Assembly: GCF_024521635.1 (NCBI RefSeq)
Contig: NW_026250441.1
Coordinates: 1-64,000, forward strand
Direction of reading: 5' to 3'
Source of the DNA: Tricharina praecox
Lineage: Eukaryota
DNA: 64,000 nucleotides
Part shown: positions 7,901-59,847 of the stretch, piece after piece
Numbering within the stretch: the first letter of the stretch is position 1
Layout of the letters: the number at the start of each line of letters is the position of its first letter
Made by a program: the position numbers and the translations under genes
Notes under the pieces: generated by a model
Databases searched by the model: none
What the model saw: the letters and a program-made list of their open reading frames with translations, nothing else
Told to the model about the DNA's origin: nothing

Positions 7901-9195
7901 CCGTATAAACCCGGATATTTGTCCTCACTGTGAAATACCTTAGCGCGGTGTGGAGGCGCGCTAGGGCGCTTAGGGTTCGTGTGGTGGCGGCAATAGAACC
8001 TCACTTAATTACGAGGTTGGAACCTGAGGCTGAAGGAGTTCGTGAGAATGGCAGCGAGCTGCCAGCCTCCGAATGGTTGATGTAGACTTTTACTTAGAAC
8101 CATACCAAAACCACGTCAACTGGAATCAGGACGACGATAATGGAGAACAGCAGAGTCAATGCGACCGTATCGAACGCCATGGACACAGTTCTACTGCAGT
8201 TCATAGCTCTGGTACTTTCACCTACGGTTCAACAAACTACTGACCATACTTTAGACGAAGATGAAGATCATCACAGACACGAGCCGTATCCCCGTATACT
8301 ACTATCGCCTCGGAAACAAAAACCAAAGCCCGGCCCAAAACGATAGGCTACCGCAGATCTCATGCGTAGATTTCCACCTCCAGCTACAAGCTCCAACCGA
8401 TAGCGACGAGCATATACGACTGCGTTCAAATTGGGAGTTCTGTCATACGCGGCGTATGGCAGGGTGTTCGATCAGGGCAAAGGCATCCTGCGAGTTCCGA
8501 CGCCTGCGGAGGTTTGTGAACGTTACAACCTAAAGCATACATGCTATTTTCGAAGATGGCGACAAGAGGAGGAGAAATTAATTGCGATGAAACTTTTACA
8601 GCAACGACGCCGGCCATCCCGTGGGCGTTGGCTTAAGCTTGAGAAAGCTTTAGTGCAAGCGTTTGCAGATCGACGTAAAGAGGAGAAGACGGTACGGAAA
8701 AAGCGGTTCGAACGGACAGCAAGGTTGTTATTTCTTCAACTTTATTCCGACACTCCTACGGTATTTATGGTTTCGAATGGCTGGTTCAGTCAGTTACTCT
8801 CACGTAATAGGATTACCATCCGCGCTGTCACAAATACAGCCCAGCAAATCCCAACAGAATACTGTGCGATGATTGTTTCTTTTCGATGTTTTAACCGGCG
8901 GAACTCTCAGCTACGCGACGGCATGGAAGATACAGCGGTACAGTCGGTACTTTCAGCCGGTTGCTGTCTTCCATCGAATATTCTTAACATGGACCAAACA
9001 CCACTCCCTTGGGAGTATCTTGATGGGAAGATCTAAGATATCAAAGGGAGTAAGACAATACGGGTAGCTTCACGGAGATCAGGGTGGGATAAAAGGCAAG
9101 CGACAATACAGCTGACAATCTTCGCCGACGGTATCGATCGTGTTAAGCCTCTCATTATATTTCGCGGGGCAGAAGACAACACGACGAGGTAGTGG
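7901..9195 (+). mobile_element. truncated pogo/Tc1-mariner-superfamily DNA transposon relic
   Basis: TA followed by CCGTATAAACCCGGATATTT is a candidate left TIR, upstream of the transposase remnant. No right TIR was found. Confidence 0.65.
8431..9192 (+). pseudogene. pogo-like transposase pseudogene (CENP-B/Tc5 HTH plus the start of the DDE domain)
   Basis: Contains LEKALVQAF..FMVSNGWFSQLLSRNRIT and NILNMDQTPL. After an in-frame stop at 9036 the frame continues GWDKRQATIQLTIFADG..KPLIIFRG and is then truncated. Confidence 0.85.
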
Positions 9196-11951: not shown

Positions 11952-13873
11952 CTACTGAACCTTCTTCTTCCATGTCACTATCTTCTGAATCCGCCTCCCT
12001 TCCGTGAGATTTGCGACCTGCTCCACCAAGCCACTATCCTCTGCGTCCGCCAGATACCCACTCTTCTCCGGTGTATTTTCATTCTCCTCCACCAGAACCT
12101 CTCCTGTACCAGTCTCACTGCTGTCTTCATCTGCCGTATTTTGTCCATCGGAATCCACCACATTTTCTTCATTAAATCCGCCAAGACATGACAGTTGTCA
12201 ATACCATCAAATCCACCTGTACAGCTGGCTTGCTCAACAACACAACATTCCACTGAACCGATGCCGTGGCCTTCCTCTTTACCAGCAGTGTTTATCGGTA
12301 ACTGAATTGCCTTGCGCACCTTGTTCGTGTCATTATCGTCAGCCACAGAGTAGGCATCCTCTGAGTTGGTATCGTCGTTTTCGTCCTCGGCCGGGTCGGT
12401 ATTGGAGTAGCTATCGTCCGTGAGGTTGGCATCGTCGGTCTCACCCGAGTCGACTGCCTTGCAGTAGATATGGTTCGAGCCGTCCGCTTTGCAGTAGCTG
12501 TTGTTCGAGCCCTCCGTCTGAGCGTGGTTAGTCTTTCCTGAATCGGTCGAGCCGGGATTGTAGTTGCCACCTTCCGTTTTTACGACAGTCCACGACTCGT
12601 CCATGTTACCGTAACTGTCCTCGGGCCAGGATTTCATCCCATGCTCCAACTGATCCAGCTCCCGCAAGGAAACGATGATTTCATCGATGTTCGGCGTGAC
12701 GACGCTGGCTCGCCGGTGGTGACTACCAGCGGGCGAGGTGTTCCAGGAGCGGACTGCTGTCGGACGACTTGAGAACGTTGTATAACCATCCTCTTCGTCC
12801 ACCGCCAGCAGCACCACTCCCGGCCTCTCGACCGGGGTGGACCCTAGCCAAGCTCCACACAGTCCACTTCGCCCCGGAGACCTGGAGCCGACGCAGTGTC
12901 CTGGCGTCTCTTGCCAGACACGGACAGCTTCTTGAAGCGATCCACGAATGACTCTACCCCGTCCGTCCGCTTGGGAGGAGCCGGAGCTGACACCGCATTC
13001 TGGCCTCTCTTGCCAGACACGGACAGGTTCTTAAACAGAGCCACAAGTGACTCCACCTCGTCCTTCTTGGTCCTCTCGTCAGACATGGAAAGTTTCTCAA
13101 AGAGAGCCACAAGTGACTCCATTCCGTCCGTGTCTTTGGAACTTCCGGTGGCTGGAGAGTAAGGAAGTGCACTGCTCTGTTGTTCGACCACAGCAGCAGC
13201 GGATACACTTCTCTGGATCGTCTTGCGAGACACGTAAAGCGTCTCAAAAAGAGTCGCGAGGGATTCTAGTTCGTCCTCGTCAAGTGGGCTACCACTTACC
13301 CCACACTGGTCATCATCGTTGGAGTCGTCCTCATCGTTGCAGTCGTCATCATCAACGGAGTCGTCGCCACTCCTCCCCCCCTCCCCCCCCCCCTCCCGTC
13401 AGTCCCGCGGAACGCAGAACGCTGCACGTTCACCTGCCTGTCCGTCCTTCTTGTGGACTTCTTTGTCTTCCTCGTAGAATTCAGGGTCACTGTCTTCGTC
13501 GTCACAGCTACGAGGAGAAGGAGTCGAAGCAGCTCCATCGCCGGAGTCCGATTTGTCACCATCGTCGCCGCTTTTCGCGTCGTCTCCATTCGAACCGTCG
13601 GCTTTCTTGTCATCGGCTTTCTCGTCCTCGTCTCAGTCTTCCTGGTAGAAGTCGGAGTCTGTCTTCGTCGTCACAATCAAGAGGAAGAGCCACGAAAGGA
13701 GCTCCATCCCCGGAGTCGGTGTTTTCGTCATCTTCGCCGCCGTCTTTCATCTCGCTGTCGGAGTTGTCGAAGTCTTGGATACCCAACTTGTAGACTATCC
13801 TGTCAGAGCCGTTGCCACCGTCGCCACCGCCACTGCACACTTTCGCCACAATCTTGCTGGTAACGTTGTCCAT
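11952..13873 (-). pseudogene. acidic, internally repetitive orphan gene with frameshifts/stops (or two fused gene remnants)
   Basis: Consecutive minus-strand ORFs 13610-13882, 12844-13233 and 11978-12817. A duplicated SGDGA..CDDEDSD.FY.ED unit has a frameshift and TGA in the first copy. ESLVALFxxLS repeats are present. Candidate introns lie at ~13433-13374 and ~13298-13265. Confidence 0.5.
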
Positions 13874-13934
13874 ATCTGACAACTTTGCTTCACAAACTCG
13901 GTCTTGTGAAGTAATGTGTAAGAAATCTCGGTGT

Positions 13935-14515
13935 CTTCATGGTAATACGGTCAGTCATTTTCCGCACTACGGAAGAACCCCCAGGTGTAGTAGATTGTAT
14001 AGGGAGATATGTACCGTAAACTACCTAAGAAAAAGGTATCGACCGTCGTCGTATCTGACACTATCGTAGCACGTGTCTAACAGGAAGTCCTGATGGTGGT
14101 TTGGTCAGTACGTCTTCGCAACTATGGAAGAACTCCAAGTTGTAGCAGAGTCTATAGGGATATCTACCTTAGACGACCGTTCAAGAAATTACCGACCGTA
14201 CTCGTAAGGTCGCACTGTACCCTAGTACGTCACTCGTAAGTCCTGGTGGTGGTTTAGTCAGTGACCTTCCGCAGATATGGGAGAACCCCATGATGTAGTG
14301 ATGTATAGGGAGATATGTACCGTAGACAACCTCTTCAAAGATTACCGACGGTAGTCGTAATCCAACAGTCCCGTAGGATCTGTATAGGAAGTCCTAGTAG
14401 TGGTTTCGTTAGTCATTTTCCGCAAGCATGAGAGAGCCCCATGGTGTAGCTAAGTAGGGGGAGATATGTACCTTAGGCGACGTTTCGAAAATAAATCCGA
14501 CCGTCGTCGTAAAGC
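13935..14515 (-). repeat. ~153 bp tandem repeat, ~4 copies, each unit being one intron plus a 73-75 nt exon
   Basis: Minus-strand units read GTA(C/G)ATATC...GACT(A/G)AC...AG|GACTT. Exons lie at 14321-14393, 14168-14242 and 14015-14089. Confidence 0.85.
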
Positions 14516-14807
14516 GAAACGAACCGTAGTCCGAAACGTCGAAATGAGATTTGCTGTCGCAAGCTCTTCGTAACTTGTGCTGTGCACAAGAAAACGTAAA
14601 GGGAGGAGGAAGAGGGGGGAGGAAGAGGAAAGAGGAAGGGGAGCAAGAGCAAAGCTAGAGCAAGAGTAAGAGCAGAAGAGGAGGGTTGCAGAGTAACAAA
14701 GGTGTAAAGAGCAAGAGAGTAGTGAGCAAAACGTAAACGTTGAGATCAGAGCAAGTCTTGAGAATTCACGAAGAAAACAAGGGAAGAAGGGTGGATGAAG
14801 ACGTAAC

Positions 14808-14815
14808 TATTTATA
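14808..14815 (-). promoter_or_regulatory. candidate TATA box for the minus-strand transcript
   Basis: TATAAATA on the minus strand, followed by a ~200 nt CT-rich leader. Confidence 0.45.
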
Positions 14816-15774
14816 CGGGTTGGTGGGTTTGGAATATTCAAAATATCCAAAGAACTAGCCAAACACTGTCGGCAAACATTTGTCCGCCACCATCACTCGG
14901 TGGTAGTATCGAGTATTCCGTTAGGGTTGCGAAGAAATGACCTAATCGCAGGCGCTTTTCGCGGCTCAGCAACATCACGTACGTTTACGGGAGAGGGTAA
15001 TAGGTTAGACTATGTACGTCCAGATATTTGCCCATGCAGAGATATATTCCCCTAGATAGGTGAAGAGATATTTCCCGAGCGAAATACCCAACGTCCAAAA
15101 CACATATTTGAAAACTCACCACCACTTAGCACTAGAAACCGGTAGAGAGATCCTTCATGTATTCCGGACGGCATTATATGACACGGTTCCACTCGCCAAC
15201 CATTCGTATACCAAAACATCACATCCGCCACATGGGTCATATCACGGCAGCCTGAATGTTCCGGCCAGGAGAAATATGGCAGCGCGCCGATCAAGAATGG
15301 AAGATTTTACCGTGCTGACAAAGTTAACCTGTCTCCAGCAATGAGCACTGTCTCTGGCTGGATTCACCGCGCGGCTTTCATGCACATTCTACTCATGCCG
15401 CGTGCGTGCGTAACTCGAAAGAATTACTCCTATTAAGACCTAACTACGCGCAGGAAACGGCTTCGGCGGACCTCCGGTTCGTCGCTACCATTGCCAAACT
15501 TGCAGAACAGCACCAACTGAATTGCTAACAAAATTCTAAGTAAGTGACTATCAGGCCCCATGCACTACAGCGACGAGTTCAAAGACAACATTAATAATAA
15601 CAGAAAGCAGAAAGCAGAAAGCAGAAAGTAGAAAGCAGCGACCAAATTAACTCGTAAAAATACATCTCGCACATCTCCTCACTCGGTAACTTCCCTTTTC
15701 CCAGCAGTGGCCGCCCCCATTTCCCCTCTGCCACCCGCTGGCCAAGTATCAACAACCTGCGCCTCATGCTCCGC

Positions 15775-41767: not shown

Positions 41768-42526
41768 ATGAAGTTCTTCATCCCTCTCGTTTTCGTCGCC
41801 GGCGCGCTTGCGTCTCCGGTCGCCCTCGAGAGCCGCCAGCTGCTCAGCAGCTCGACCACCTCGAACGACTACGTGAAGGGAGGCTGCAAGCCTGTCGTGA
41901 TGATCTACGCCCGAGCCTCCACCGAGTCTGGCAACGTCGTATGTACCCCCACCTACACATAGCTCGTTCTCCCATCACTGACATCTCCGTCCAGGGCACC
42001 CTCGGAGCCCCACTCAAGAGCGGCCTTGAGCGCGCCTACCCCGGCAACTTCGCGCTCCAGGGTGTCGAGTACCCGGCCGACTTGGCCTCGAACTTCCTCC
42101 CCCTCGGCAGCGGCCAGGACTCGATCGACGAGATGGCTCGTCTGATCACCGACGTGGCAACGAAGTGCCCCAGCGCGAAGATCGCCGCCGGCGGCTACAG
42201 GTACTTTCCCCCTCCCGCCCTCTCCCCCGCTTCCCCTGCACATCTAACTCCCGCACAGTCAAGGCACCGCCGTCGCCGCGCGCTCGGTCGCGCAGCTGCC
42301 TGCTAACATCCGCGACCGCGTCGGCGCCGTCGTGCTGTTCGGGTACACACAGAACGACCAGCTCAACGGCGGCATCCCCGGCTACCCGCAGGACCGCGTC
42401 AAGGTCTTCTGCAACACGGGCGATCTCGTCTGCGAGGGCACCCTCACCATCGCCCTGCCCCACTTCATGTACTCCGGAAAGGTCACCGAGGCTGTCAGCT
42501 TCATCGTGTCGAAGCTCGGAAATTAG
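41768..42526 (+). CDS. secreted cutinase (CE5), 3 exons
   Basis: Signal peptide MKFFIPLVFVAGALA; ARASTESGN; GYSQG formed across intron 42201-42258; CNTGDLVC and the catalytic His. First intron is 41939-41994. Confidence 0.95.
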
Positions 42527-45902: not shown

Positions 45903-48419
45903 TTATAGAAATGTAATCTCCACTCCCGACGCAACTAACCCCATCCGATACAAATCTCTCCCTACATGGCTCGGCATACAAATCACAGAAACTTTCAACA
46001 TCTCATCAAGGGTTCTTCCCGCTTCACATACGACCCAGCATCCACCATGCCGGCAGCCAACTAGAGAATAATCTCCATCGGGTATGGGCGCCATGTGATC
46101 GGCAAATATTTTCCATTCGCGACGTTGCATCCCATGGCCATCGACTACTATCTTTCCATATCTGCACCAGGATTCCTCCTCGGCCTCGGTCGTCTTCTTG
46201 GTCTTCGTGGTCTTCTTGGTCTCCGCAGTTCTCTCGATCCGCATGGGTCCCCAGGTCTCCATGGCCATGTCCTTCCATCTAGGCATCTGGTTACCCGTTA
46301 TCATCTCAAAGCCCGTGGTCTTGTTGAGCCTCCTCCGTTTCTCGTACCCCGATGGCTTCTCGGTCTCCGTTGTGATGTCCGTACTCCAAGGCCTCATGTC
46401 CGTACTCCAAGGCCTCTTGAACCGCGTTGGCGGCATCTCGGGCCGCGTTAGCTTCTCGTAGTTCCACGACTTCTCTGTCTCCGGGGTCATGTTAAACCAC
46501 GTTGGTTTCTCCGTCTCCAGGGTTATGTTGAACCTCGTTGGTTTCTCGGTCTCCGTGGCCATGTTGAACCTCGGTGGTTTCCCGGTCTTCGTGGTCATCA
46601 GGTCGAAGCTCGTTCGTCTCTTGTACCCCGTTGCCTTGCCGTAGATCGTTGGCTTCTCGGTTGGATTGGCCTTGCAGATGTCGTTGTTCCCGCTACCCTC
46701 ATCATCCCCGCTAACCGTGTTAAAGCCAGAAATTGAGCAAGTTCTGATATAGTAACCAATGCAAATGGCAGAGGTGGCCTTGCCGGCTTCATTGCGGTTG
46801 ACAGCGACGTGGTCGAACATCGTATCGTAGGAGCTTGAATCGAACGAGCGCCCAGGAATCATATGTCCCTCGATTTCGCTGCTCTGTTGAAGCTTCGACC
46901 CAGTAGCAGACCACTCCACAAGACGCAGGGACTTTGTATGCTCCCATGATGGACACCACCGGCGTTGTGACTCCTGCTGATCCGAAGGCACAGGGTATCG
47001 GAACAGCAGTTCACCCCTCCCCCATCGCGGCATATGAGAAATGCATAATCCCCAGGCGTCTTCGGGCTTCTCGTCGATGTCGTATGCTGGTAGCGTCGGG
47101 CACCGCAGGATATAAGAGATAGAAGTGATCTTATCGATTTCGTTCGTCGCCTGACGGCCGTGTATCAACAGAAGCGCATAAAACAGCCGATCTCGTTCCT
47201 TTATAAAACAATTCATGGTGTGGGGGTGCATGACGCATTCCACGGCTAGCTGGAGGAAGTCCCTCTCAATATCCTGGCCTTTCTCCCTTCGACCGCCAAC
47301 CATATAGTTGCCGGTTGACTCCTGGACCGTCCACACGCGGTTCTTCCAATGTCGCTTTCCGTCAAGAAGAGCCGGGTTATTATCAAAGCATCTGCCTAGG
47401 CCGTTGTAATACCGGAGAACGAAGGTGTCGGCCTTTTCGCGATACACATTGCCGATGGTCGGTACATCAATGCGCCATTCCTCTTTCCGGAGATCCCATT
47501 CTACCCTCTTTGCCTTCCGTGCTCCAGCTGCTGACAAAGGGCGATCGTTTGTGGATAACGTCGTCGTGCGTTGACGGATCAACCGCAGCCCTTCCGTGCC
47601 CCGAGGGAACCCCTGGCGCAAACAGAGGACATCCAACCAGCAATATTGCACTCCCAATGCAAGCACCTCTCGTCGTATACTTTCCAAGTCGACACCGACC
47701 GGTATGGTCACTGGCCATTGTCCGCCATTGATCGGCGTCATGATCGTTTGTGTATCGTCTGTCCACGCATGTGAGATGGCGCACAGTTTCCGACCAGCGC
47801 TGGAAACGACCTGATCGTTTACGAAGGACTCCCAGCCATTAGAGCCGGTGAATGAGCAATACGCATAGTCGACCACCCTGTTGGCATACAGATCCCAAAC
47901 GCGCCTTGGTGGGATTTGGTACGGATCGATGATCATGGTAACCCCTATCTTGTCGCGATGAATTGCGCCCTTCCTGCGAGCGTGAAGAAATGCCCTCCAG
48001 TTGTCCATCTCCTTCTGTGCGGTCCCAAGTACCCCATGACCTTCGAAGCATCTCCACAACGGACGAAGCATCGCATAAGCCGTGCCAAAGTCCTTTCCTA
48101 TGGTAAAGCCAAGGAGCGAATCGTATTCTAGTCGATACAGATACGATGTTTCCATGTGCTCGTTGATCATCTGGAAGACCCATTGGATGTCTTCACACCT
48201 GATCGATGCCGCGCTTTCGCCTTGAAGTACTGCGGTGACGTCGTGCGAGCGTGAAACCTCGGCGGTGAGGTGCAAAACAGTGGCGGATTGCCCATGCGAG
48301 CCAACAACCTCGGATTGCCCATGCGGGCCAACAACCTCGGATTGCAGCTTCAATTGATGGAAATCTGCTGCCAGGTCTGACTCGCGTTTTTTGAGGATGT
48401 GCGATCGTGATTCTGCCAC
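45903..48419 (-). CDS. HET (heterokaryon incompatibility) domain protein; true start uncertain
   Basis: 838-codon ORF with the HET motifs PRRVWDL, AISHAW, YCWLDVLCLRQ, IDVPTIGNVY and WKNRVWTVQE. Confidence 0.9.
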   Translation of the reverse strand: MAESRSHILKKRESDLAADFHQLKLQSEVVGPHGQSEVVGSHGQSATVLHLTAEVSRSHDVTAVLQGESAASIRCEDIQWVFQMINEHMETSYLYRLEYDSLLGFTIGKDFGTAYAMLRPLWRCFEGHGVLGTAQKEMDNWRAFLHARRKGAIHRDKIGVTMIIDPYQIPPRRVWDLYANRVVDYAYCSFTGSNGWESFVNDQVVSSAGRKLCAISHAWTDDTQTIMTPINGGQWPVTIPVGVDLESIRREVLALGVQYCWLDVLCLRQGFPRGTEGLRLIRQRTTTLSTNDRPLSAAGARKAKRVEWDLRKEEWRIDVPTIGNVYREKADTFVLRYYNGLGRCFDNNPALLDGKRHWKNRVWTVQESTGNYMVGGRREKGQDIERDFLQLAVECVMHPHTMNCFIKERDRLFYALLLIHGRQATNEIDKITSISYILRCPTLPAYDIDEKPEDAWGLCISHMPRWGRGELLFRYPVPSDQQESQRRWCPSWEHTKSLRLVEWSATGSKLQQSSEIEGHMIPGRSFDSSSYDTMFDHVAVNRNEAGKATSAICIGYYIRTCSISGFNTVSGDDEGSGNNDICKANPTEKPTIYGKATGYKRRTSFDLMTTKTGKPPRFNMATETEKPTRFNITLETEKPTWFNMTPETEKSWNYEKLTRPEMPPTRFKRPWSTDMRPWSTDITTETEKPSGYEKRRRLNKTTGFEMITGNQMPRWKDMAMETWGPMRIERTAETKKTTKTKKTTEAEEESWCRYGKIVVDGHGMQRREWKIFADHMAPIPDGDYSLVGCRHGGCWVVCEAGRTLDEMLKVSVICMPSHVGRDLYRMGLVASGVEITFL

Positions 48420-52352: not shown

Positions 52353-52961
52353 TCAGCCGCCGCCGCCGTCGCCGCGCGCCCTCGTCGCCATCCACGTACC
52401 TTTCCTAACGCGATACCTCTCCTTCCACTTATCAGTCCTCTTCTCGATCCACGCGTCGAGATCACCATGGCGCTCCCTGGCGAGTGCCATGACATCCTCC
52501 TCCAGCAGCATAGTCGCACGGACACTATGGACCATATACGTGCCCCAGCGACACCGGGCCAGCAGCTCGTCGCGCCCCAGCCGCCACTCCGCCCGCGCAT
52601 CCGTCATCGTCACCCCCTCCCACCGCGTGTCGCACCGCCGACAGCACCGCACATCGTTGAATACGCGCGCGACGCACCGCGTGCGCCGGTCGCAGAAGCG
52701 GCAGCGCATGTGCGCATGCCGCAGGTAGGTGCGCGTGTAGGGCGCCTTGAGGCGGGCACGGGGGGAGGAGGGGAACGCGAGTGATAGCTTCGTGAGCAGG
52801 TGCAGGCTGTAGGACTCTACCGCTGAGTGCAGGGACCGGCTGCTCAGGAAGAGCGCGCTGAAGGCATGGCGACACAGCGAGGGGACGCTGGCGGAAACGG
52901 GTGACAGGTGCGATAGGATCTCGTATAGGACTTCGCGCGGGAGGTCGTCGAGCGTGGGCAT
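52353..52961 (-). CDS. F-box protein with a C-terminal Cys4 zinc-binding region
   Basis: MPTLDDLPREVLYEILSHL is an F-box start; CRFC..CRRC follows. Confidence 0.8.
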   Translation of the reverse strand: MPTLDDLPREVLYEILSHLSPVSASVPSLCRHAFSALFLSSRSLHSAVESYSLHLLTKLSLAFPSSPRARLKAPYTRTYLRHAHMRCRFCDRRTRCVARVFNDVRCCRRCDTRWEGVTMTDARAEWRLGRDELLARCRWGTYMVHSVRATMLLEEDVMALARERHGDLDAWIEKRTDKWKERYRVRKGTWMATRARGDGGGG

Positions 52962-58772: not shown

Positions 58773-59847
58773 ATGCGACCAAGTTCCCGCATATTCCTGT
58801 CAATACTCCCGGCCGCCGCGTCGTTGCTCCCGCTGGTCGCCGCAGCAGGCACCTGGCCCGGCTGGAGCGGTCTGAAGCACATGATAGTCTTGTAACTCAC
58901 CCCTCCCTGCCGCCGCTCACCCGCCCCGGGCGCCACCAGCTAACCCCCACAGCGGCGACTCCTTCACGCGTATCGGCTACGTCCCGGGCAGCTCTCCCGC
59001 GCCCTCATCCAGCAACCCACTCGGCGTCCCCGCGCCCGGCCGGCCCTCCTCCAACGGCCCCAACTGGCTCGCGTACCTCACACGCACCTACAACGCGCAG
59101 CACACAGTACTCACACACGACCTCGCCGCAGGCGGAGCGACCGTATCGCGCAACCTGGTCGCCGGGCCGGCGACGGCAAAGATGCTGAACGAGCAGTTGG
59201 CGGAGTGGTTACCGCTCGTAAAAGGGTGGACTGGGAATGAAACGCTGGTGGCAGTGTGGATCGGGATCAATGATGTCCGCCTTGGATGGCAATCGGATGT
59301 GCAGGTGGAGAGCGTTGTCGGGGAGTATTTTGTGCAGTTGCAACGGGTGCGCTCTCCCCCCGTTCGGGCACCTACGGCGCCGTGGCTGATAGGTAGTAAG
59401 CAGATGTACGCCTCCGGCGCACGCAACTTCCTCCTGCTCGACGTGCCGGACATGACGCGTTCGCCGGAGTCGCAGGCACTGAACGGTAGCGAGCGCGCAG
59501 CGCTCGGTGTGTACAATACCGCGTACAACTCCCTTCTATCGCAGGGGGCGCGGGAGTTCGAGGCCGCGAACGACGTCGTGGTTTTCACGTTCGGGATGGG
59601 GGAGGTCGCGGATGATGTCCTCGATCGCTACACCGAGTTTGGGATCAGTAATACGCATGAGTTCTGTGCGGCGTATGAGAACAGGCAGTATAATGGGAAC
59701 GGGGATTGGGAGACGTTCGTGGATGCGAATTGTACTGCTGCGGTTGGGAAGTACTACTGGCTCGATAAGACCCATCCGACGAGTACTGTGCATAGGGAGT
59801 GGGGGAGGAGGCTGGCGGGGTTTTTGCAGGCGAAGGCGCCGCAGTGA
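58773..59847 (+). CDS. secreted SGNH/GDSL esterase (CE16-like acetylesterase), 3 exons
   Basis: Signal peptide; FGDS across the first intron; SNGPNW, WIGIND, GARNF and DKTHP motifs. Confidence 0.9.

Follow-up and report, generated by a model that had tools for sequence, protein, structure and literature searches.

Within the window (the whole stretch of 64,000 nucleotides of Tricharina praecox DNA that was analysed), the minus strand carries a tandem array of four GT-AG segments of 78, 78, 78 and 80 nt, with internal exons of 73, 75 and 75 nt between them. The units are spaced at 151/153/153 nt; repeat finders give a period of 151-153, and the window units are 62-79% identical along their length. 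The array is not a chance arrangement, since TRF returned a period of 153 with a score of 355 and two paralogous arrays were matched at E values of 1e-170 and 2e-129. A preliminary description of this DNA had proposed a four-intron array with exons of 73-75 nt, lying between a TATA box with a CT-rich leader and an ATG at 13873; the coordinates, the TRF result and the paralogous arrays agree with it, the TATA box being found at 14815 and the ATG at 13873. The gene copy inside the window is here called the window copy, and the other two, on contig C56, L002 and L004. The promoter, the array and the start of the ORF recur in both C56 copies, which are approximately 4.7 kb apart and possess four (L002) and five (L004) introns.

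All features of the locus are read on the minus strand. Upstream promoter motifs lie at 14868 to 14928 and are kept in all three gene copies in the alignment, namely AACCCTAA (14928-14921), CCGAGTGA (14900-14893) and GCCGAC (14873-14868). They are followed by a TATA box (14808 to 14815), whose sequence TATAAATA is invariant in the three copies. Predicted exon 1 (14472 to 14769) consists of a pyrimidine-rich leader followed by a partial repeat unit with two hairpin cores, which lie inside a 10-bp inverted repeat (14541-14532 with 14487-14478). Intron 1 (14394 to 14471, 78 nt) has the donor AAG/GTACATAT (the slash marking the boundary), the branch motif CTAAC and a TAG acceptor, with 9/11 matches to the U1 5' end. 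Exon 2 (14321 to 14393, 73 nt) is the best-preserved exon of the window copy, possessing hairpin 1 (TCC-TACG-GGA, 14378-14369), hairpin 2 with its loop mutated to TACC (14357-14346), and the 5' arm and loop of a junction hairpin. Intron 2 (14243 to 14320, 78 nt; ACG/GTACATAT, CTGAC, CAG) shows 8/11 U1 matches. Exon 3 (14168 to 14242, 75 nt) has two damaged internal hairpin cores in the window copy, and L002 and L004 each have the two cores intact. Intron 3 (14090 to 14167, 78 nt; AAG/GTAGATAT, CTGAC, CAG) again shows 9/11 U1 matches, and it is followed by exon 4 (14015 to 14089, 75 nt), in which the window copy has hairpin 1 broken and the loop of hairpin 2 mutated. Intron 4 (13935 to 14014, 80 nt; ACG/GTACATAT, CTGAC) ends in an AAG acceptor one base out of register, its counterpart in L002 having a CAG acceptor in register. 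The last non-coding exon part (13874 to 13934, 61 nt) ends at the ATG and contains a 25-nt block (13915-13891) identical in the three copies; elsewhere in the genome, no site matches the 22-nt core of this block when up to 3 mismatches are allowed. Exons 3 and 4 are closed by stop codons in all three frames, as had been reported for the middle exon, while exon 2 has one open frame.

The downstream orphan ORF (12856 to 13873) begins at ATG 13873, where public model P0002 also starts. Its product possesses acidic tracts and tandem repeats of the ESLVALFxKLSV type; four to five helical repeats of the form (M/V/L)ESLVALFxKLSV follow the acidic tracts (window 12856-13300, minus strand; L005:8480-8980). 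The hydrophobic spacing of these repeats presumably fits the pattern of a nuclear export signal, which is used here as a candidate label only. The class 1a spacing as printed in the available part of one source (PMC4596688) differs from that of the repeats. No Pfam family and no Atlas match were found for the protein. Two named protein records that match the gene family are labelled as hypothetical proteins of Tricharina praecox; protein matches were confined to models from this same genome and a pair of unrelated repeat proteins, none being a credible outside relative. The ORF is damaged in all copies: the window copy has two in-frame stops and is frameshifted near codon 74, L004 has a frameshift near codon 20, and L002 has deletions that leave a 169-codon frame. 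Pairwise pN/pS values are 0.52-0.69. On the separate branches, where counts are small, pN/pS is 0.28 (10/10) for the window copy, 0.48 for L004 and 1.16 for L002 (5 synonymous and 21 non-synonymous changes), the contrast between the window copy and L002 having a p of 0.055.

The promoter follows the layout of the U1 genes of this genome (TATA / pyrimidine tract / TTCTTC), measuring 46 nt here compared with 42-53 nt in 12/13 U1 genes, and the transcription start was placed near 14769 because of this shared order of TATA box, pyrimidine tract and start. The motif CCGAGTGA is present in 13/21 U1 promoters versus 1.9% of window tiles, and GCCGAC in 12/21 versus 10.6%. CCGAGTGA was also identified upstream of 2/7 histone loci; as the histone loci share parts of the layout, the promoter is read as a strong general one and not as specific to snRNA genes. 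Derivation of the gene from a U1 snRNA was rejected, as there is no profile match and alignment of the gene body gives P values of 0.20-0.38, so that only the promoter layout is shared. Genome-wide, the motif pair CCGAGTGA / GCCGAC is enriched over reversed controls (19 versus 4 and 30 versus 8 matches). Among 49 loci with the pair, none but five U1 loci and the three copies of this gene have a TATA box with pyrimidine tract following within about 100 nt; at 39 other motif-pair loci no Rfam RNA was found except one 5S gene. The genome contains at least 22 diverged U1 snRNA-like genes, nearly all with the same 5' end and all below the Rfam cut-off. They are mostly clustered, some in divergent pairs on C12 (239-306 kb and 490946), with further examples at C10:501602, C50:904180 and C16:144234 (L172-L179 for the whole set). 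For a fungus, 22 such genes seems a high number. Fifteen U2 snRNA matches above the Rfam cut-off were found on C37, C31, C32, C72, C75 and other contigs (L229-L240), and the 12 that were inspected seem to contain a spliceosomal-type intron close to their 5' end (GTAYGY, a branch-like motif and ACAG).

Searches of the genome by DNA and by pattern, a check that had been proposed for the unit, found only the three paralogous loci, these counts being lower bounds; nine other matches to the donor pattern are not units. A covariance model matched only its 13 training exons within the 119,677 bases scanned. No relatives were found outside this genome. The sole metagenome match was rejected as chance, as it sits in a bacterial NRPS/PKS region, and of at least 120 viral pattern matches, the 80 to which the unit profile was applied showed nothing beyond the pattern, with a best E of 0.006. 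None of three soil metatranscriptome contig sets covers the array, which says nothing on its expression. The copies sit near contig ends, and the stretch between the C56 copies contains two blocks of a diverged minisatellite with a repeat of about 21 nt (C56 about 71060-71700 and 72870-73140). Neighbours in the window include a Tc5 transposase DNA-binding fragment (8587-9036), a cutinase (41941-42306), a HET-domain protein (45903-48170), an F-box protein (52353-52961), a cytochrome P450 (55926-56396) and a GDSL lipase (59182-59847); many other ORFs of the window are orphans.

Splice signals and origin of the units

Because the donors lack a G at +5, they were tested against the genome's own U1 5' end (22 U1-like genes) over 11 positions. 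The predicted donors pair at 8-9/11 positions in 12/13 introns and at 7/11 in one, a level of at least 8/11 being reached by 0.75% of 7763 background GT sites. The A at +5 is offset by U1 matches at -3..-1 and +6..+8, and no variant U1 matching GTACAT was found among the 22 genes. A CTRAC branch motif is present in 12/13 introns, 13-16 nt from the 3' end, and the acceptors are YAG in 10 and AAG in 3 of the 13. A GT donor, CTRAC branch point and AG acceptor had been described for every unit of the window array, and they are found in 4/4 (GTACAT three times and GTAGAT; TAG, CAG, CAG and AAG). With such donors, branch motifs and acceptors, the segments are predicted to be U2-type spliceosomal introns whose splicing we infer. 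In three introns (window 13935; L004:2050 and 2184) the in-register acceptor AG has been lost and the nearest candidate is an AAG one base downstream; a shift of this kind would be tolerable only because the leader is non-coding. The four deletions of 5 nt or longer counted in the introns (23, 19, 17 and 5 nt) fall in their interiors and leave every donor, branch point and acceptor untouched, with a chance probability of approximately 0.003, a figure that leaves out a deletion of about 80 nt in exon 1 of L004, which removes a hairpin.

Homology between the units is head to tail, covers exon and intron together and keeps the splice sites in register across 13 units in the three copies. This supports, on the sequences compared, the earlier proposal of intron gain by tandem duplication, in the form of duplication of the whole exon and intron unit, with a further duplication in L004. 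Alignment of introns with the next exon gave P values of 0.10-0.91 in 10/10 comparisons with no homology found, and the Rogers AGGT model of intron gain, which requires an intron homologous to the neighbouring exon, was therefore rejected.

Divergence of exons and introns

Pairwise differences among the three copies amount to 14/167 sites in splice signals, 70/651 in exons and 136/637 in intron interiors. The intron interiors look neutral, since their pairwise divergence (19-23%) matches that of the synonymous sites of the ORF (19-29%). It had been stated that outside its splice signals the unit has diverged, which is wrong for the exons. In the comparison of splice signals with the rest of the unit, put forward earlier as a check, the signals differ less than the intron interiors, and the exons are conserved as well. 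On the C56 branches, 19/506 exon sites changed versus 38/378 in intron interiors (p 2.5e-4; 16/506 versus 38/378 under the other choice of orthology), and splice signals changed at 3/112 versus 38/378 (p 0.011). On the window branch the values are 25/253 for exons, 13/189 for intron interiors and 3/56 for splice signals, showing no constraint. The suggestion that splice signals are under selection is supported for the C56 copies and not for the window branch. Between L002 and L004 the exons are 6% apart and non-synonymous sites 18%. Conservation between the C56 copies extends to the pyrimidine-rich part of exon 1 (12/180), so the constraint spans the whole mature leader and not the hairpins alone; hairpin cores are modestly more conserved than other exon sites, with p of 0.09 or 0.003 depending on the orthology choice. 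Exon lengths across the copies are 71-75 nt, with indels of 1-3 nt. A depletion of ATG in the exons (0, 1 and 0) was strong against base shuffles and was rejected as a signal, since it did not stand out against dinucleotide shuffles (P 0.10-0.59). Judged by sequence, in three related copies from one genome and with few events, the exons and not the introns are the conserved, structured part of the array, which the earlier reading had missed. By the same measure the window copy is a decaying copy, its exons without constraint and its ORF frameshifted, while the C56 copies retain the constraint.

Purely neutral amplification was considered as another explanation, with hairpin words present by chance in the founding unit and gene conversion responsible for the low exon divergence of the C56 copies. 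The closeness of these copies (about 4.7 kb) would suit it, as would the unconstrained window copy, the lack of relatives elsewhere and unremarkable global folding. However, low divergence in exons (3-10%) and high divergence in introns (11-25%) alternate on a scale of 75 nt, and exons are also less diverged than introns when compared with the unlinked window copy (p 0.068 and 0.025). Changes on both sides of the stems described below moreover fall between unit types and predate the gene duplication, and this explanation is held to be improbable.

The introns had also been proposed as hosts of intronic RNAs, for which their being sibling sequences might speak. Their interiors are diverged in a neutral-like manner and have suffered deletions of 17-23 nt; in 13 introns and 10 internal exons there was no C box (at one mismatch or fewer) and no H/ACA end, and introns and exons gave no Rfam match at E up to 1. 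The eight introns folded have z values of -1.5 to +1.2, with neither stable nor symmetrical structure. These results go against the proposal. Coding exons, as drawn by public model P0001, in which portions of three L004 exons are translated, fare no better: exon lengths of 71-75 nt, the indels of 1-3 nt between copies and stops in all frames argue against them, and the model needs sites inside exons and agrees with the periodic structure at only a single donor and a single acceptor. Taken together, intron-hosted RNAs or coding exons are regarded as the least credible account of the array.

Tetraloop hairpins in the leader

Each exon contains three UACG-type words with complementary arms, giving hairpin 1, hairpin 2 and a junction hairpin. 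The arms of hairpin 1 are GAC/GTC, TCC/GGA or TAC/GTA according to unit type, and those of hairpin 2 are CGAC/GTCG. The junction hairpin is divided between exons, its 5' arm and loop closing one exon and its 3' arm opening the next (GUC-UAMG/GAC, the slash marking the join); the intron starts GTA/GTG do not supply this 3' arm. The C56 leaders, in spliced form, have 10 and 11 UNCG loops on stems of at least 3 bp; the window copy has 4 and the introns have 0, the background having a mean of 0.31 and a maximum of 4 (360 tiles). Shuffles of single exons gave P values from <0.001 to 0.03 in 7/7 internal C56 exons, and of 0.006, 0.17 and 1.0 in the three exons of the window copy. In a loop-anchored count, for which hairpins were picked after inspection and anchored by hand, and which leaves aside one absent hairpin and the three junctions whose AAG acceptor is shifted, 112/118 pair cells are paired and 4/10 pairs have changed on both sides; 0/5000 unconstrained simulations on the unit tree reached both stem values at each of five rates. 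With a plain alignment, the covariation score was beaten by 0/500 shuffles, the number of pairs changed on both sides was reached by 61/500, and RNAalifold recovered hairpin 2 only. A junction stem of 3 Watson-Crick pairs is present in 9/13 predicted spliced junctions (five with UACG and four with UAAG loops), and 6/13 junction loops are UAAG and not UNCG. C-G-closed UNCG loops with conserved pairing are accordingly seen at the level of sequence, most clearly for hairpin 2.

Loops of the cUACGg type are unusually stable. In the available part of one study, Z-turns are described for UACG loops of rRNA, and either a U-turn or a Z-turn is possible for UNNG loops (PMC5311481). Folding of the whole leader is no stabler than that of shuffled sequences (z -0.3, +0.13 and +1.26 for three spliced leaders), and junction folds are not better than those with shuffled partners (P 0.10-1.0 in 13/13). 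By ensemble probability, hairpin 2 forms frequently, with values of 0 to 0.99 depending on the site, while hairpin 1 and the junction hairpins are mostly below 0.3. Given such global folding and such low probabilities, a stable fold appears to suit the pattern less well than short stems that carry a fixed loop and are stabilised by protein.

The repeated CUACG/GU words may instead be elements of splicing control, serving as alternative donors or as exonic enhancers for weak donors without +5 G, with the stems secondary. A GT follows the word at the true donor and at most internal copies, the internal sites reach 7-8/11 U1 matches, and P0001 twice takes the GT after hairpin 2 as a donor. Hairpin 1 of exon 2, however, is followed by GG and not GT while its arms are complementary in 4/4 copies, and covariation of the arms would be needless for a linear signal; we consider splicing control a doubtful explanation of the words. 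Pairing of the exons with the 3' end of 18S rRNA, so as to recruit or shunt ribosomes in the manner of the adenovirus tripartite leader, was weighed as well. Exon 2 contains exact antisense blocks to positions 1744-1750, 1754-1761 and 1770-1776 of the genome's own 18S (P 0.003-0.03 within the last 50 nt of 18S, a chosen window), and the last exon aligns best to 1727-1778 in the three copies (P 0.095, 0.045 and 0.02). The pairing was noticed after the fact, and over the whole 5.9-kb rRNA unit the best window of exon 2, alone or with the last exon, has P values of 0.07-0.43, within the range of random genomic pairs. The 18S 3'-end target is also mostly paired in the mature subunit, which counts against such pairing, and a role of this kind seems very unlikely.

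Possible role of the spliced leader and comparison with known systems

The array could have arisen from an ancestral unit of about 74 nt of non-coding exon and 78 nt of U2-type intron that was multiplied to four tandem copies within the 5' leader of a gene specific to this lineage; promoter, leader and ORF would then have been triplicated together, one copy gaining a fifth unit. A non-coding leader, as proposed earlier, is supported. Splicing would remove the introns and join the exons as a cassette of about 300 nt behind the pyrimidine-rich 5' part, each exon giving two short UACG-loop hairpin cores and a third hairpin (GUC-UAMG/GAC) being completed only by exon ligation, whichever exons were joined. 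The spliced leader may thereby form a multivalent landing pad for a putative factor reading a loop on a short stem. Building on the duplication history, the quality of the splice signals, the exon-specific constraint and the covariation of the stems, which the sequences themselves document, this preferred reading supposes transcription, splicing, folding in vivo, a binding factor and an effect. In it, about ten loop-on-stem sites would be shown to an RNA-binding factor, and what becomes of the RNA, whether in its export, its localisation or the translation of the acidic orphan protein, would thereby depend on splicing and on the number of units. We put it forward tentatively, with a probability approaching but not attaining an even chance.

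A second possibility is a modular scaffold assembled by the spliceosome, in which the three-hairpin UACG cassettes act as a multivalent decoy or scaffold independently of the ORF. Tandem duplication would alter the number of units, and exon skipping could do so too, because an identical junction hairpin is restored at each join; in the copies with the best-kept leader, the ORF is decaying. This possibility is rated as rather unlikely. Closely allied to it is the explanation that the gene functions through the spliced leader itself, which would be a non-coding RNA of repeated hairpins acting as decoy or scaffold, the ORF being dispensable. L002 keeps its leader while its ORF has a pN/pS of 1.16, large deletions and an upstream out-of-frame ATG; L004 also keeps the leader, yet is frameshifted near codon 20. 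Conversely, the window copy kept its ORF longest (pN/pS 0.28) and lost constraint on the leader, and the divergence of 6% in L002-L004 exons versus 18% at non-synonymous sites points in the same direction. Against this, the ORF contrast between the window copy and L002 has a p of 0.055 only, pairwise pN/pS values of 0.52-0.69 indicate past purifying selection on the ORF, and the L004 frameshift lies within a G run and may be an assembly error. A purely non-coding product is considered unlikely, and the preferred reading remains a leader that ties the fate of the RNA to its splicing.

The locus offers a clear fungal case in which repeated duplication of exon plus intron yields several sibling introns with a visible source, the three gene copies serving as internal controls and the window copy as a natural decayed control. 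More unusual is that non-coding exons appear to be the most constrained part of a gene, with covarying tetraloop hairpins of which one is split per intron. If confirmed, splicing would here build an array of RNA structures whose valency changes by duplication. The reach of this is limited for now to one genome and an orphan gene. In the literature searched (mostly open papers) no description was found of a fungal leader of this arrangement.

The available parts of the cited papers allow comparison with several known systems. In the potato RdRp gene, introns were gained by tandem duplication of an intron/exon structure, a mode distinct from the Rogers AGGT model (PMC4974935). As there, new introns arose here by direct duplication of intron-exon units and inherited branch site and acceptor; unlike there, four to five units are present, wholly in a non-coding leader, the donor has been passed on as well, and the exons are under constraint as RNA hairpins. 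Introner-like elements and the sister (stw)introns of Hypoxylaceae are likewise families of similar fungal introns, which insert at unrelated gene positions and are themselves structured (PMC4457414; PMC8469720). The array introns, in contrast, are unstructured and confined to three loci, where they stand in tandem with exons homologous to one another. Membership in either family was rejected, as searches match the three paralogs only (lower bounds) and intron z values are -1.5 to +1.2. Targets of Pac1 (RNase III) in snoRNA hosts also have hairpin arms in adjacent exons, formed only after splicing (PMC12508059). Pac1 needs a stem of at least 20 bp, and a Pac1/RNase III junction signal was rejected because the stems here are of 3 to about 10 bp; they are also capped by UACG/UAAG, occur at every junction and are accompanied by no snoRNA. 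The adenovirus tripartite leader resembles the array as a 5' leader of short non-coding exons (41, 72 and 75-90 nt), which are not repeats (PMC5429599); the complementarity of the present exons to 18S loses its significance once the whole rRNA unit is considered.

The closest functional parallel may lie in RNAs with which the array has no sequence relation or Rfam match, the present leader being fungal, spliced and upstream of an ORF. CsrB/RsmZ and the Xist A-repeat are repeated-hairpin RNAs that bind proteins. The tetraloop of the enterovirus cloverleaf is bound by 3C, according to the available part of the source (PMC5633025). A conserved loop on short stems, present several times over and read by a protein as in these RNAs, is the working analogy adopted here for the spliced leader.
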